Origin: an uncultured virus (IMG/VR IMGVR_UViG_3300029922_000049)
Taxonomy: Duplodnaviria > Heunggongvirae > Uroviricota > Caudoviricetes
DNA: 64,000 nucleotides
Strand: one strand, 5' to 3'
IMG/VR virus record: IMGVR_UViG_3300029922_000049
Shown here: one piece after another, positions 17,056 through 62,473 of the stretch
How positions within the stretch are numbered: the stretch's first letter is position 1
Layout: each line of letters begins with the position of its first letter
Notes under the pieces: generated by a model
What the model saw: only the letters and a program-made list of their open reading frames with translations
Told to the model about the DNA's origin: nothing
Database searches by the model: none
Made by a program: the position numbers and the translations under genes

Positions 17056-17838
17056 TTATTTTTTGATAAATAAATCAAATTCATTTAATATATCACTGGA
17101 TTTATTAGTTAAAATATATTTTCTAATACTAATATTAAATTTATTAAAAATATATTCTTTAAATTTTGTTATAGCATTACCTAACTCTTTACCTTTTAAT
17201 TCTGGATATATTTCCATTATTATATTTCCATTAAATTTTTTAGAAATTTCTTTATTTTCTATTTCAATTAATTTATAATCTTGAATCTCTTTTTTTATAT
17301 CAGATAAATCTCTAATAGGCTTACAATTAAGTTCATCTCCACCAAAATCAGCAGAATCAAATTTCATCAATTCGTTAAAATATTTATTATTTAAAATTTC
17401 AATTTTATTTTGAATTCTAAAATTATCTAAATATTTAATCTTCATATGATTCTCAACTATATAATATATTAATTTATAATCTCCTACCATTTCTTTTACA
17501 AAATTTGCTTGATCTTCTAGCATTTCACAAGACACATATTCATGTCCAGGAGCAATCCAAGATTTTTTTTCATCACTCCACTCAGTGGTAGATGATTTTC
17601 CTAAATCATGATATAATCCTGCTAAATCTAAATTTATATCATTATATGTTTTATGTAATCTATTTACTACCAATTTAATATGTTCATAAACGTCATATTC
17701 TGGATGCCATACTTCATTTTGCATTACTTCTTTCGTTGAGTCTATTAAATCTTTCAATTCTTTTGGTGAAAGTTCATATAGATATGAAAAATAATCTACA
17801 TATAATTTATCAGTAAATTTATTAAAATTCTTTATCAT
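17056..17838 (-). CDS. HD-domain phosphohydrolase (like the HD/C-terminal part of CCA-adding enzymes)
   Basis: QNEVWHPE.DVYEH, LYHDLGK, GHE, NHM, and C-terminal NGN.IM...LKGKELG. Confidence 0.8.
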   Translation of the reverse strand: MIKNFNKFTDKLYVDYFSYLYELSPKELKDLIDSTKEVMQNEVWHPEYDVYEHIKLVVNRLHKTYNDINLDLAGLYHDLGKSSTTEWSDEKKSWIAPGHEYVSCEMLEDQANFVKEMVGDYKLIYYIVENHMKIKYLDNFRIQNKIEILNNKYFNELMKFDSADFGGDELNCKPIRDLSDIKKEIQDYKLIEIENKEISKKFNGNIIMEIYPELKGKELGNAITKFKEYIFNKFNISIRKYILTNKSSDILNEFDLFIKK

Positions 17839-51799: not shown

Positions 51800-52343
51800 A
51801 TGAAACATATTAAAAAAATTGAATTCTACAATACAAAAGAATTTACACGTGATTCAGAACCAGAAATAAATGATTACGTCAGACTCAACGAAGATTTCTA
51901 TGAATCTAAAATACCTGAATATTTTACCCCTAGAAAAAACGATACTGACTATAAATATAGAATAGGTAAAATAATATCTATAGAAACACACAGAATACTA
52001 TAACGTTAAATTTGATAAATATGAATTGTGGAATAACAATTTTTTAGTTAAACGTGAACAAATAAAAAGCTATTCTAAAAAAATTGAAGATCTGGAAAAT
52101 CTACCATCTATTGGAGATTATTGCTTACTTGGTTGGAATAATACTGAATTGTGTAAAGTAATAAAGAAAGAAAGAATTGAAAATTTTAGATGGGCTTCAA
52201 TTGATTATGAAGTTAAAAAAATGAATCCTGGACCTCACGACGGACCAGGAATTGTTAAAACTGATGATGGATCAATGAAGTATTGGTCAAGTTCTATAAT
52301 TGATATGGAATCAATTATAGCATCAAAGAAATTTAATTTGTAA
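51800..52343 (+). pseudogene. Probably one frameshifted gene (51800-52003 plus 52026-52343)
   Basis: MKHIKK start tag on the first part and ASKKFNL end tag on the second. Frame changes at an acacac run near 51985. Confidence 0.6.
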
Positions 52344-52362
52344 CTTAGGTGGGAGTCGAACC
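52338..52362 (-). pseudogene. 3' remnant of a tRNA gene
   Basis: Minus strand reads GGTTCGACTCCCACCTAAGTT-A-CAA (T-loop plus acceptor 3' strand) with no 5' half. Confidence 0.65.
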
Positions 52363-52391
52363 ATCTCATTTAGACATTTCAATATAAGACA

Positions 52392-53330
52392 TTATTTTAG
52401 CCACTTCTTAACTGTATTGCCAGTCACACCATAAACTCTACCAACAGCTTCTAAACTTGTATCAGATATCATTAATCTTAATTCATCTTTAGTTGGTCTG
52501 TTCATTACTTTTCTTTCAGATAATCTATAACACTCATTGCACTGATTTGATCTGGTTTGAATTTCTTTGCCGCATGAGCAAATATTTTTTATTGATGGAT
52601 ATTTTTTTCTAATTTTAATTTTTTTTGTTGATTTATTTTGAATTTCTTCTTTTTCTATTAATTCTTTTTCTATTAATTCTTTTTCTTCTAAAATTATACT
52701 TTTTATTTTTTCACTGTCATTAAAATTTATATCATATTCAAACATGATATTTTTTATTACATTATTATCACCTCCTCTTTTTAATCCTATTTTTATTTTG
52801 ACTTCACTGTAATTTTTGGAATTGGAAATAGATTCCAATAATTGTATCTTATCATATGTTTTCTCTGTTCCTTTATTTTTAGATCCATATGTATCTGTTT
52901 GTGTGTGACAATTTGGACATAATATTTTTAAATTTTCAAATTTATGATTTGTACTATCACCATCTTTATGATGTAATTGTAAAGCAATTGGCATATTATT
53001 CCATTCTGTCAACCCGCATTCTTCACATCTATTTTCTTTTAGTCTATCTTTAATTAATCTTTTCTTTAAATGAGTTGTGCCATATGATGGATGCAAACCA
53101 TCTAATATGTCATTTAATGGTATAGCATTTTTTGTTTGCTTATAATTATCTCCAAAATTCCATCCTTGCCCAGTAAAATGATCAATGTTTATATTATATA
53201 ATTTAATATATTTTTTTACTGTGAGAATATTTCCTCCTACTGGCACTAATCCAATATTCTTGCAAGTGCTTGAATAAGAAAATGATTTTTTAATAACTTC
53301 TTCAAATTTTTCTTTATTATATTTATTCAT
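52392..53330 (-). CDS. Free-standing HNH endonuclease
   Basis: CEECG...LQLHHKDGD..N...NL.ILCPNCH, plus C-terminal Zn finger and HTH. Confidence 0.92.
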   Translation of the reverse strand: MNKYNKEKFEEVIKKSFSYSSTCKNIGLVPVGGNILTVKKYIKLYNINIDHFTGQGWNFGDNYKQTKNAIPLNDILDGLHPSYGTTHLKKRLIKDRLKENRCEECGLTEWNNMPIALQLHHKDGDSTNHKFENLKILCPNCHTQTDTYGSKNKGTEKTYDKIQLLESISNSKNYSEVKIKIGLKRGGDNNVIKNIMFEYDINFNDSEKIKSIILEEKELIEKELIEKEEIQNKSTKKIKIRKKYPSIKNICSCGKEIQTRSNQCNECYRLSERKVMNRPTKDELRLMISDTSLEAVGRVYGVTGNTVKKWLK

Positions 53331-53355
53331 ATACTTTTTTTATTGTATATATAAA

Positions 53356-53397
53356 AAAGTGTGAGTCAATTTTTTTAATAAAATTGGCTCACACTTT
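53356..53397 (-). terminator. Hairpin at the 3' end of the tRNA array
   Basis: aaagtgtgagtcaattt...aaattggctcacacttt inverted repeat, followed by a T-run on the minus strand. Confidence 0.7.
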
Positions 53398-53398
53398 G

Positions 53399-53488
53399 TA
53401 TTCCAGGCGGGATTTGGACCCGCAGTGTGTCATTAACTGTATTAGATCCTAAATCTAACGCGTCTCAACCAAGTTTCGCCACTGGAAC
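53399..53488 (-). tRNA. tRNA-Leu (TAG)
   Basis: Acceptor GTTCCAG/CTGGAAT, anticodon arm TTAGA-TTTAGGA-TCTAA, long variable arm, A73. Confidence 0.9.
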
Positions 53489-53496
53489 ATGTATTG

Positions 53497-53570
53497 TAAC
53501 TGAGATGGGAGTCGAACCCACAAAATTCACCTTTTGAGGATGACATGGTTACCAATTACATCACTCAGTC
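53497..53570 (-). tRNA. tRNA-Leu (CAA), short variable loop
   Basis: Acceptor GACTGAG/CTCAGTT, anticodon arm TCATC-CTCAAAA-GGTGA, T-arm GTGGG-TTCGACT-CCCAT, A73, 74 nt. Confidence 0.85.
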
Positions 53571-53577
53571 ATTATTG

Positions 53578-53663
53578 TACTGATGGTGGGACTTGAACCC
53601 ACATTCTTACTTTGTTCAGAAACAGTTTCTTAGACTGCCGCGTATTCATTCCGCCACATCAGC
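53578..53663 (-). tRNA. tRNA-Leu (AAG)
   Basis: Acceptor GCTGATG/CATCAGT, anticodon arm GCAGT-CTAAGAA-ACTGT, long variable arm, A73. Confidence 0.9.
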
Positions 53664-53674
53664 ATGTTTTATTG

Positions 53675-53757
53675 TATTCCTGGTCGGACTCGAACCGACA
53701 CGCCAGTGGGCAAATTCTTTTAAGAAATTTATGTACTACCAATTTCATCACAGGAAC
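53675..53757 (-). tRNA. tRNA-Leu (TAA)
   Basis: Acceptor GTTCCTG/CAGGAAT, anticodon loop CTTAAAA, variable arm GCC-CACT-GGC, T-loop TTCGAGT. Confidence 0.92.
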
Positions 53758-53765
53758 ATTTTTTG

Positions 53766-53851
53766 TACTCTGAGCGGGATTCGGACCCGCATTGTTTCTT
53801 AATGTAATACTTTTTAAAAGTATCGTGTTTCGCCAGTTTCACCACCAGAGC
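53766..53851 (-). tRNA. tRNA-Leu (TAA)
   Basis: Acceptor GCTCTGG/TCAGAGT, anticodon arm ATACT-TTTAAAA-AGTAT, long variable region, A73. Confidence 0.88.
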
Positions 53852-53861
53852 ATTTTATTAT

Positions 53862-53900
53862 AAAAGAAAAACCTCAATCAAATAAATGACTGAGGTCTTT
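53862..53900 (-). terminator. Attenuator terminator (3:4 hairpin) upstream of the tRNA-Leu array
   Basis: ACCTCAGTCA-TTTATT-TGATTGAGGT followed by TTTTCTTTT, about 10 nt before the first tRNA. Confidence 0.9.
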
Positions 53901-53921
53901 TTAATATGCTTATATTATTTG

Positions 53922-54014
53922 TTACAATAGATATGACATAGTACTCTCAGTCCGATTATTTTGTAATAATAGGTTTAAGAGTAGCAAGTTCATTATGTTA
54001 TTGTAGTTTTTCAT
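53922..54014 (-). CDS. Leu-rich leader peptide (30 aa, MKNYNNIMNLLLLNLLLQNNRTESTMSYLL)
   Basis: ATG at 54014 to TAA at 53922. Codons TTG CTA CTC TTA AAC CTA TTA TTA. Below the ORF-track size cutoff. Confidence 0.85.
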   Translation of the reverse strand: MKNYNNIMNLLLLNLLLQNNRTESTMSYLL

Positions 54015-54068
54015 ATCAGTATATATTCTTTAAAAAATATGATTTTTTTCTATTTTTATTATGTAGTA

Positions 54069-54100
54069 CAAAAGTACGGAAAAGTTTTCAATTCACCAAA
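54069..54100 (-). promoter_or_regulatory. Bacteroidota primary-sigma promoter for the leader/tRNA operon
   Basis: TTTG(54100-54097)-N20-TACTTTTG(54076-54069). Confidence 0.85.
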
Positions 54101-56332
54101 CTTTTTATTGAAAAGTTTTATCTTTTTTATATTCATTATTTACAATAGCATCAAGAATCTTTTTTTGTCCTTTTTCAGAAACATCATCAAAAGGAAAATC
54201 TTCTCCCATTTCTAAGCAATATACATCATTTTTATATGTATAAATCGCTTCAACTTCTTGGTTATTTGTGAATACGCATGGCGTAGTATGATTCTTACCT
54301 AATATTTCTAAAATTTTTTGTTTCATATTTTTATTTTTAATTAATTATTCGGACCAACTTCATCAATTCCGATAGATTTCAAATATTTTAAGCATTCAAA
54401 TTCAGTTTTAAACTTTATTGGTTTATAAGAATTATTATAATCTCTTTTTATTTTTCTTATTTTTTTAAAATTTTCATAGAAATCTTCATTATCTACTTTA
54501 TATATCAAGTCATGATCATCAAAATAAGGATATTCATAATTAAAATATTTTTCATTATATAAAGTGACGTATATTTGTTTTTGTCTTGTTTCGACGTTAC
54601 ATAGTAATCTTACATTTTTATATAATTTATCTTGCATTTGTTCGTGTACTGTTTTGAATTCATTTGATAATTTTACATCTTTTTTATAATCAATCATATA
54701 TCATTCAATTCTTTTAATTTTTCAATTCTTAATTTATTTAATTCAAATTTTTCTTTTATTTCTTTTAAATATATATTTAGTTTATCAAATTTTTCCCGTA
54801 TCTCAATGAATTCGATTGTATTATAACTTATATTATAAAGTATTCATTCCAAAGATAAACTTTTTTTCTCTAAAAATACAATTTCATTTTCAATATCTTT
54901 AAATTTCATGATATATTATTTAATTCTTTCAATTTTTCGATTCTTAATCTATTTTCTTCTAATTTTTTATAAAGTATATTATTTTCTTTTTTGAGTTCAA
55001 ATTTACGATATATTAAATTAACATATTCTTTATCAATCAATCTATTACTATTTAGCATTACGTTAAGGTAAAATATTCTATTATCATTAAATAAAATTTT
55101 ATTTACAATATCTTTTGATGTCATGATTAATATATTTTTATATTAAATTATTTCTCCTCTTTTTATTTCTTTTCTTCTATTTATGATATTTACTTTTTCA
55201 TGAATCTTCATTCTTATATCATCTTTAGAAAATATTTCAGATTCAATATGACCATATATTTGGAATATAAATTTTGGAATTGTTTTTATAATTATAGGGC
55301 CAAATATTAAATATTTAGGATGACTAGCATAAGTAGTATTATAGTAAAAATATGTTTTTTCACCACAATTATCTTCAACTTGATGATATTGATATTTTTT
55401 ACCATCATATACAATTTCTTTATATTTTGGATCTTTATAATCTTTAAAAATAAAGGTTTTATTATTTAATTTTTTAGTTGTCATATTATAGTTTATTAAT
55501 TTCTAATATAGCTTCTGCTACATATAAATATTCAATTTCTGTATTATCATATTCAAATGTTCTATTTTCATCTCTATAGTATATTGATTGACCTAACAAT
55601 TTACGAATACAAATATAGTTATGTTTAATTCTTGATTTAAAAACATCGCAATCAGGATAAAGTATTTTTACTTTATCTATCAATTCTTTTGTAATTTTAC
55701 TCTTGCTCATTTTTTGTTTTTGATATGTGTTATTTTTTCAGTTACTACTAATAGCTGACTAATATCTTCAGCAGGTGAAAACAACCAAGATGTTTCATTA
55801 AAAATATCTTTAATTGTATCACATCTATTAATTATGAGACTAATTGCTTTTTTGAAATCTTTTTCTGTTATATGTGTAACAATAACTTCTTGATTATCAA
55901 TTATTTGTATTTTACTTTTCATATTTTATTGTAATTTATTGTTTTACAAAGCAGTCATTAATCCAAAATGTTTTGGTATATAAATATGAAGGATTAGTAA
56001 AACATATTTGTTGAATTGTTGCGGTTTCCATCCAAATCATTCTACCTTTTAAAATTAATGGGTACCATAAAAATTTAGTTATTAATCTTACGTCTCCATG
56101 ATCACCAAAATTCTTATTTTTTCTAAAATCTATTTGCATACAATTTTTATTTACGTTTCATAAATTTATTCATCAATCATAATATAAATGATAGACTCTA
56201 CAATTAAAAGTGCACATATTGCTATTATTGCTGACATAATTTATAGTTTTTAATTTGAATAAAATATTGAATACAAAGATAAAAAAAAGTCCTCACATAA
56301 GCAAGGACTTTTTCATTTATTTTCATATTATT

Positions 56333-61655: not shown

Positions 61656-62405
61656 TTATTTATCTAATACATATTTATCATAATAATCATTAAATCCATC
61701 CATCATAGTGGTAATTGAATTTGAATTATCATCTTTTAATCCAATAATAGTATCGATCAAACCATATTGTACTGCTTGATCTGAATTTAACCATTTATCT
61801 CTTTGACAAAAATTGTGGATTTCTTCAAACGGCTTTCCAGTATTTTGAGAAAGAATCTTGAATAATAAAAAATTATATTTTTCAGTCTCCATTTGACTAA
61901 TACGAGTGTCATCTACTTTACCACTAGTTCCAGCAGCAACATGATGTAACATAACGGTAGCATTAATTAGTGATGAACGTTTACCTTTTTCACCAGAAGA
62001 AAGTAGAACAGACCCCATTGACGCGCACATTGCTAAATTGACTGTAGACACATCAGACTTAATCCAGTTCATTACATCAATGATACCAAGTCCTTGTATA
62101 ACTGACCCGCCTGGACTTGAAATTTGCATTGTAATATCCTTTCCAGGTTCTGCATTATCCAAATATAACAATTGTGCTTGAATAATATCTGACATAACAT
62201 CATCTACTTCTCCAGAGACCCATAAAATTCTATCTAAAAGCAATCTATCAAACACAGATAATTGTGTAACATTTAATTTTCTTTCTTCTAATATCATAGG
62301 GGTTAGTCCATAATTCTTAATTTGATATTTTATTGCATTATCTACCACTGTTGAATTCATACGTAAATGCTTAGTAGCGTAGTTTTTGAAATCGTTTTTC
62401 TGCAT
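61656..62405 (-). CDS. clpP: ATP-dependent Clp protease proteolytic subunit
   Basis: AQLLYLD, ISSPGGSV, CASMGS (catalytic Ser), MLHH, RDKWL...YGLID. Confidence 0.95.
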   Translation of the reverse strand: MQKNDFKNYATKHLRMNSTVVDNAIKYQIKNYGLTPMILEERKLNVTQLSVFDRLLLDRILWVSGEVDDVMSDIIQAQLLYLDNAEPGKDITMQISSPGGSVIQGLGIIDVMNWIKSDVSTVNLAMCASMGSVLLSSGEKGKRSSLINATVMLHHVAAGTSGKVDDTRISQMETEKYNFLLFKILSQNTGKPFEEIHNFCQRDKWLNSDQAVQYGLIDTIIGLKDDNSNSITTMMDGFNDYYDKYVLDK

Positions 62406-62442
62406 AATTTAATATTTTAGTTATTATTTAATTGATTAGATA

Positions 62443-62473
62443 CAAAGATAAGGAAAGTTTTTGAATTACCAAA
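62443..62473 (-). promoter_or_regulatory. Bacteroidota primary-sigma promoter for clpP
   Basis: TTTG-N19-TATCTTTG. Confidence 0.8.

Follow-up and report, generated by a model that had tools for sequence, protein, structure and literature searches.

A short ORF on the minus strand of this phage DNA, with 7 Leu within 8 codons, lies upstream of five tRNA-Leu genes. We interpret it as the sensor element in a ribosome-mediated (leader-peptide) transcription attenuator that gates a self-contained operon of these genes, with a probability of about 0.78. The interpretation is carried by the anatomy of the locus, by its alternative RNA pairings and by a match between leaders and tRNA arrays that extends across the family. 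Throughout, the window denotes the whole stretch of 64,000 nucleotides that was analysed. Positions 54100..53350 of its minus strand form one compact unit, consisting of a promoter-like element, an A/U hairpin, the ORF, a terminator, five tRNAs and a closing terminator.

The window is AT-rich phage DNA (G+C ∼ 22%) with PHROG matches to a head maturation protease, a baseplate protein, HNH and GIY-YIG homing endonucleases, transposases and a tRNA nucleotidyltransferase. The transposase-like genes (PHROG 506, 6620 and 12300) are located inside the phage contig at 9843-11616 (-) and 59532-60983 (-). The closest record to the window, G001, is 125 kb long and is rated 18% complete; the phage is therefore probably a megaphage of several hundred kb. 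G001 and relatives were used as stand-ins for the window's genome in comparisons. The DNA runs that contain the stretch are labelled as peat, freshwater and permafrost metagenomes.

The unit begins with a promoter-like element that matches the pattern TTTGGT-N6-AAAACTT-N5-TAnnTTTGT exactly (54068..54100, minus strand). Exact matches occur twice in the window, compared with none in 100 shuffles, and tRNA arrays in LR756502.1 and in IMG/VR contigs are likewise preceded by this element. We take its TTTG / TAnnTTTG pair to be of the kind found in Bacteroidota promoters. The element is placed between the upstream ORF and the leader. A second copy (62442-62473 (-)) immediately precedes the gene for the head maturation protease (61656..62405), which suggests that the tRNA operon may share a promoter class with structural genes. 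The 5′ untranslated region contains a hairpin made of A and U only, followed by ATATATA (54031..54052, minus strand; read directly). This arrangement is also kept between promoter and leader in several relatives (L016, L028-L030 and L060), whose form is TAGAAAAAAA-tgac-TTTTTTTCTA.

The leader ORF (53922..54014, read from the minus strand) has 30 codons plus stop and encodes MKNYNNIMNLLLLNLLLQNNRTESTMSYLL. Both its start and its stop are present, with the promoter pattern (54100..54068) upstream, and the ORF is kept in 8 related contigs with 0 to 3 amino-acid changes. Its regulatory Leu codons (53964..53987, minus strand) are TTG CTA CTC TTA (53987..53976), then AAC, then CTA TTA TTA (53972..53964), exactly as the original prediction had read them. 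That list had missed two more Leu codons, CTA TTG (53930..53925), just before the stop. Reading the sequence ahead of the ATG, we found no evident ribosome-binding motif. Contigs from two RNA libraries cover the leader and the terminator only: X19 spans 53890..54012 at a depth of 22 and X20 spans 53845..53991. None lies above 54012, and the tRNA genes are touched only by two short partial matches in X21. Such contigs cannot show starts, ends or transcription and the libraries may contain DNA, and we give them no weight.

ARAGORN places five tRNA-Leu genes at 53851..53398, all matched by the Rfam tRNA model, and these are the sole tRNAs in the 64 kb. In order of transcription they carry the anticodons TAA (53765..53851), TAA (53674..53757), AAG (53577..53663), CAA (53496..53570) and TAG (53398..53488), all on the minus strand, and the anticodon set predicted for the array is thereby confirmed. 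A closing terminator hairpin followed by a U-run (53356..53397, minus strand) was found by folding (−18.5 kcal/mol, z = −7.7, 0/200 shuffles as good). The CAA tRNA, only 75 nt long, differs from bacterial tRNA-Leu in its short variable arm; its counterpart in L067 is of the same short kind, that of L133 is long-armed, and the charging identity of the 75-nt molecule is uncertain. All five window tRNAs (53398-53851) and the Leu tRNAs of L133 (1423-1965) have a G1.U72 wobble pair atop the acceptor stem, then A73, then CA. Neither set encodes CCA. A tRNA nucleotidyltransferase-like gene is located at 17056..17838 (-). HNH endonuclease genes lie directly 3′ of or within tRNA arrays in the window (52392-53330 (-)), in L067 (about 530-1720 of the oriented stretch) and in L011 (2461-2895); in relatives they appear to split the arrays. 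Three relatives, L014 (G002:C1:1-5000), L017 and L001, have many tRNAs with A34 (Val AAC, Thr AGT, Leu AAG, Pro AGG and Gly ACC), which raises the question of whether A34 is deaminated broadly by these phages or their hosts.

The leader RNA can adopt mutually exclusive structures. In the MFE structure (z = −6.9, 0/200 shuffles as good), region 1 (UACUCUUA; 53976..53983, minus strand), which is contained in Leu codons 11 to 13, pairs with region 2 (GGACUGAGAGUA; 53942..53953, minus strand), itself inside the ORF and delineated by duplex and truncated-RNA folding. The part of region 2 that pairs with region 1 is UGAGAGUA. Both C's of the CTC codon pair with G's of region 2, so the suggestion that this codon is constrained by the 1:2 stem was correct. 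Regions 3 and 4 (53867..53900, minus strand) fold into an intrinsic terminator of 14 pairs with a loop of 6, whose U-run extends to about 53858; it stands between the leader ORF and the tRNA genes. Region 2 also contains GACUGAG, which is perfectly complementary to CUCAGUC in the 5′ arm of the terminator (region 3); the resulting 2:3 antiterminator duplex reaches −12.1 kcal/mol compared with −4.7 in shuffles (0/200 as good). Since UGAG of region 2 is common to both pairings, 1:2 and 2:3 exclude each other. When the RNA was cut before region 4, the free molecule formed 1:2 and left region 3 open, whereas a ribosome placed at codon 12 (with an assumed footprint geometry) allowed 2:3 to form. The full-length MFE structure retained the terminator with the ribosome masked at any codon. 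At equilibrium the full-length RNA thus always prefers the terminator and the decision must be kinetic; the same preference holds for trp. The two arms, GACTGAG and CTCAGTC (53945-53952 and 53889-53895), also repeat the first seven acceptor-stem bases of the CAA tRNA, GACTGAG (53564-53570). This may be chance, because related terminators share CCCAGTC-like cores.

How the switch would operate, from leader translation and stalling to readthrough and its physiological trigger, we infer from this sequence and its relatives. Transcription would start at the phage promoter, of the class that also precedes the head-protease gene, and a ribosome would translate the 30-codon leader. If the Leu codons were read fast, or if the leader were left untranslated, region 1 (Leu codons 11 to 13) would hold region 2, the 3:4 terminator would form and RNA polymerase would stop before the tRNAs. 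If charged tRNA-Leu were scarce, the ribosome would stall on the Leu codons and leave region 2 free to pair with region 3; the terminator could then not form and the five tRNA genes would be transcribed. Because the product is the sensed tRNA, such a device would constitute a negative feedback loop on decoding capacity, not on amino-acid synthesis. The model presumes coupled transcription and translation in the host.

The same tRNA-Leu array was found in seven IMG/VR contigs, whose leaders fall into two variants. In variant B the fourth Leu codon, TTA, has become TCA (Ser), and a U.G pair of stem 1:2 becomes C-G; structural constraint is judged here from such natural variants alone. BLAST against phage records returned tRNA-level matches only, plus one weak match of the promoter region to LR756502.1, a 642-kb uncultured phage. 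In LR756502.1 the same promoter element precedes short ORFs and terminators that front tRNA arrays, and the arrays are sorted by amino acid: four tRNA-Gln have MTTSFQQQQQQQINRTD upstream, and an Asn/Leu/Val/Ile/Thr array is preceded by an ORF with abundant Asn, Leu, Thr, Val and Ile. The window's own lineage has a second array (L014, in G002), where Arg, Pro, Ala, Gly, Val and Thr tRNAs follow a leader with the core TTGTATTTATTPVTGGRPVA. L133 has the window's anticodons in the same order plus a tRNA-Arg(TCT), and its leader contains AGA three times. In L167, the fusion of a Glu/Tyr with an Ile/Gly/Ala array is mirrored in the leader, which is likewise fused. L023 carries two tandem leader-plus-terminator modules (MTQFSKHSKSFKFWSH.. 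and MRVSSKHSSSFKFWSQ..) ahead of one Phe/Lys/Trp/Ser/His array. The Lys/His/Phe/Trp array of L142 ends in a tRNA with the anticodon TTA, a possible ochre suppressor that hints at stop-codon recoding in that phage.

We scanned IMG/VR with the promoter pattern and added the tRNA clusters of five more large contigs. A candidate was a terminator with a tRNA at most 900 nt downstream and, ending no more than 100 nt before the terminator, an ATG-ORF of 8 to 60 aa, of which the longest was taken; this rule returned 55, of which 50 had arrays, plus 5 more. Across all 50 rows with arrays, evident false ones included, leader residues belonged to an amino acid served by the leader's own array in a proportion of 0.346, compared with 0.172 ± 0.015 for permuted arrays (0/20000 as good). 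Within single genomes the true pairing of leaders and arrays was the unique best of 5040 arrangements (LR756502.1), 5040 (G007), 720 (G009) and 6 (G011). Later tests used 47 unique leaders, after removal of duplicate peptides, of four rows from L013, L044 and L020 (unrelated hairpins) and of two rows where the longest-ORF rule had chosen a non-leader. Among these 47 the match was 0.381 in the ORF frame and 0.15 to 0.19 in the other five, and the ORF frame was the best in 36; such frame specificity favours translation over an RNA-only reading. The antiterminator was searched for in 46 leaders, each of the two non-leader ORFs having been replaced manually with the alternative ORF of its locus. 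Complementarity was matched by at most 10/200 shuffles in 25/46 leaders and by none in 13/46, and the best region 2 was inside the ORF in 43/46; the simple 2:3 test was no better than shuffles (> 10/200) in 21/46. Homologous leaders are not independent in these counts (those of the Arg/ACG type form a single orthologous family), and the arrays may be incomplete where ARAGORN misses tRNAs or loci are cut. Across relatives, the amino acids of a leader list the tRNAs behind it.

Whether the choice among synonymous codons carries further information is a separate matter. In its long ORFs the window uses the Leu codons at frequencies of TTA.70, TTG.09, CTT.13, CTC.01, CTA.06 and CTG.01. The original prediction held that the leader's Leu codons look non-random, and as a set they are indeed atypical (log-likelihood P = 0.015 for 7 codons and 0.003 for 9), with P = 0.014 for at least three CTA and P = 0.08 to 0.10 for the presence of CTC. 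Their coverage of all four isoacceptor classes is another matter: draws from the window's Leu usage achieve it with P = 0.098 (7 codons) or 0.175 (9 codons), and four-class coverage alone is not beyond chance in the window. Usage in the window's long ORFs, taken in place of the genome-wide usage whose comparison had been proposed, confirms that CTC is rare, but the atypicality is not specific to the sensing codons. Across the 47 related leaders, the share of G/C-ending codons is 0.30 for array amino acids and 0.28 for the others, against a background of 0.128, and the RSCU difference between array and non-array codons has p = 0.067. Since leaders are G/C3-rich in all codons, rare codons as such say little, and we rejected rare-codon enrichment as a sign of tuning.

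Codons do follow anticodons for two other amino acids. Before arrays whose only tRNA-Ile has the anticodon TAT, 12/14 Ile codons are ATA, compared with 3/13 before GAT arrays (p = 0.0018) and 34/90 in leaders without a downstream Ile tRNA (p = 0.001). Arg codons are CGN in 10/12 cases before ACG/TCG arrays and in 0/10 before TCT/CCT arrays (p = 1e-4); leaders without a downstream Arg tRNA have 28/54, from which the TCT type differs with p = 0.0034 and the ACG type with p = 0.058. These Ile and Arg tests comprise 4 to 5 leaders per class, several of them orthologous. For all amino acids together, 292/348 codons are decodable by the leader's own array, compared with 268.8 ± 6.9 when arrays are permuted within each amino acid (3/5000 as good). 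These data point to isoacceptor-level tuning in the family for Ile and Arg. For Leu, 50/60 codons are decodable by the leader's own array versus 46.4 after permutation (572/5000 as good). The predicted covariation of codon sets and anticodon sets among homologues is thus seen for Ile and Arg and not for Leu, where it was judged on 11 Leu-bearing leaders, most of which have full anticodon sets.

That the sensor would read tRNA supply and not an amino-acid pathway had been part of the original prediction, and the amino-acid sets, the frame specificity and the Ile/Arg covariation bear it out. Amino-acid starvation would not be relieved by making extra tRNA, the match of multivalent leaders is to arrays and not to pathways, and Ile and Arg show isoacceptor resolution; for these reasons we favour sensing of tRNA supply over sensing of leucine synthesis.

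We consider it very improbable that there is no translated attenuator at this locus, and that the hairpin merely ends the upstream gene behind a fortuitous ORF or the RNA senses tRNA directly in the manner of a T-box. The lack of an evident ribosome-binding motif before the ATG would suit such a reading, but the promoter element separates the upstream ORF from the leader, the amino-acid match is specific to the ORF frame in 36/47 leaders, the permutation tests back the leader/array pairing, and an Rfam cmscan of 52000..56000 at E up to 1 gave no match to a T-box or other riboswitch. Sub-threshold matches in this search, to rnk_leader (27.7 bits versus a gathering score of 50) and to mir-3156, were rejected as noise or hairpin matches. 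A more specific proposal, central to the original prediction, accepts the attenuator and holds that the four Leu codons were selected to test each isoacceptor (CAA, TAG, AAG and TAA) separately, such that losing or cleaving any one would open the operon. All four classes are represented in both the window and variant B, relatives track Ile and Arg at the isoacceptor level, and a mixed set is unusual given that classical leu leaders repeat one codon, with three CUA cited in PMC1183508. The coverage is nevertheless within chance (P = 0.098 to 0.175) and is incomplete in other lineages. L133, with the same five anticodons, uses only CTA, CTG and TTA, without CTY or TTG, and covers 2/4 classes; L011, L116 and L127 cover 3/4. 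The sister variant has even exchanged its fourth Leu codon for a Ser codon, TCA. Among the 11 Leu-bearing leaders, CTY is present in 4/6 with an AAG tRNA and in 3/5 without, and TTG in 4/7 with a CAA tRNA and in 2/4 without (both p = 1.0). The leader of L067 differs from that of the window at three bases (one synonymous, two amino-acid changes) and keeps CTC, but its array is TAA, TAA, TAG, an inserted gene and CAA, with no AAG tRNA in its 32.9-kb contig. Furthermore, the Watson-Crick codon of AAG is CTT, which the leader does not use; reading of CTC by AAG assumes inosine at position 34, which is rare on bacterial tRNA-Leu, and the C's of CTC are in any case paired in stem 1:2. We therefore regard selection for separate testing of each isoacceptor as doubtful, and with it the claim that loss of any one tRNA-Leu species would be the trigger.

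A stronger contender, although we lean slightly against it, is that RNA structure and base composition alone set the codons and that the leader senses bulk Leu-tRNA. Any Leu codon can be read by a full isoacceptor set, and the anticodon match would for that reason be incidental. The equally raised GC3 of array and non-array codons (0.30 and 0.28 versus 0.128; RSCU p = 0.067) is consistent with this, as are the construction of region 1 from Leu codons 11 to 13, the non-significant Leu permutation test and variant B, which with TTA to TCA gains a C-G for a U.G pair at the price of a Leu codon. A need for G and C, however, cannot explain Ile ATA before TAT arrays or Arg codons that are exclusively AGA before TCT arrays, and across the whole family decodability exceeds that of permuted arrays (3/5000). 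We suggest instead that within the attenuator the Leu mix is best explained by a requirement that the operon's tRNAs can read every codon, together with chance and the base needs of stem 1:2 (the C's of CTC). Four different Leu codons would also suit a leader that reads several isoacceptors; deliberate sampling of one codon per isoacceptor is not required. The one-codon-per-tRNA match for Leu is real, yet it is no conserved rule, and we suggest that the four-for-four agreement in the window should not be read as a designed feature.

Leader-peptide attenuation is textbook knowledge for amino-acid operons, whereas for tRNA genes we found no printed account: a full-text search of literature outside subscription, judged on listings and abstracts, returned no published case. 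The classical leu/ilv/thr leader attenuators resemble the window system in having a short ORF with a run of regulatory codons, which are rare ones, and pairings 1:2, 2:3 and 3:4 that end in an intrinsic terminator. Some leaders, at ilvGMEDA and thr, are multivalent and list several amino acids. In contrast to leuL and its like, the window system would control tRNA genes, not biosynthetic enzymes, and the molecule sensed would also be the product. Its leader mixes four Leu codons where the leu leader repeats one, and has no sequence or model similarity to leuL (no match to Rfam Leu_leader in the cmscan of 52000..56000, E up to 1). It is also found in a phage, behind a promoter presumably of the Bacteroidota type. 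The pheM leader of the E. coli pheST operon is likewise a leader-peptide attenuator over a component of the translation apparatus that responds to charged tRNA, although it controls a synthetase and not tRNA genes, is devoted to a single amino acid and is cellular. Effects of hisR on his attenuation are also known. The T-box binds uncharged tRNA directly through one specifier and has a conserved T-box sequence. The window system would resemble it in sensing the state of a specific tRNA and switching a terminator, but the window leader has many in-frame codons in a putatively translated ORF, and the cmscan of 52000..56000 (E up to 1) found no T-box. Biased regulatory codons, the CUA codons of the leu leader and isoacceptor-selective charging are documented in PMC1183508, where the choice of codons by isoacceptor is an established theme.

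In these phages, attenuation appears to be the standard control of tRNA arrays, with leaders that read like the parts list of the array. A bolder version, which we offer tentatively and consider possible but would not favour, is that megaphages wire each tRNA operon to a translated list of exactly its tRNA species, isoacceptor-resolved in split codon boxes. The phage would thereby notice when particular host tRNAs are damaged or depleted, for instance through anticodon nucleases or through its own shut-off of the host, and replace just those on demand; in the window, loss of any one tRNA-Leu species would then open the operon. The attenuator itself would provide compact natural sensors of individual tRNA pools and an annotation rule, in which the composition of a leader predicts its array. 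It also offers a direct and testable account of what makes large phages express tRNAs of their own, and at what time: they would do so on demand, once decoding becomes slow.
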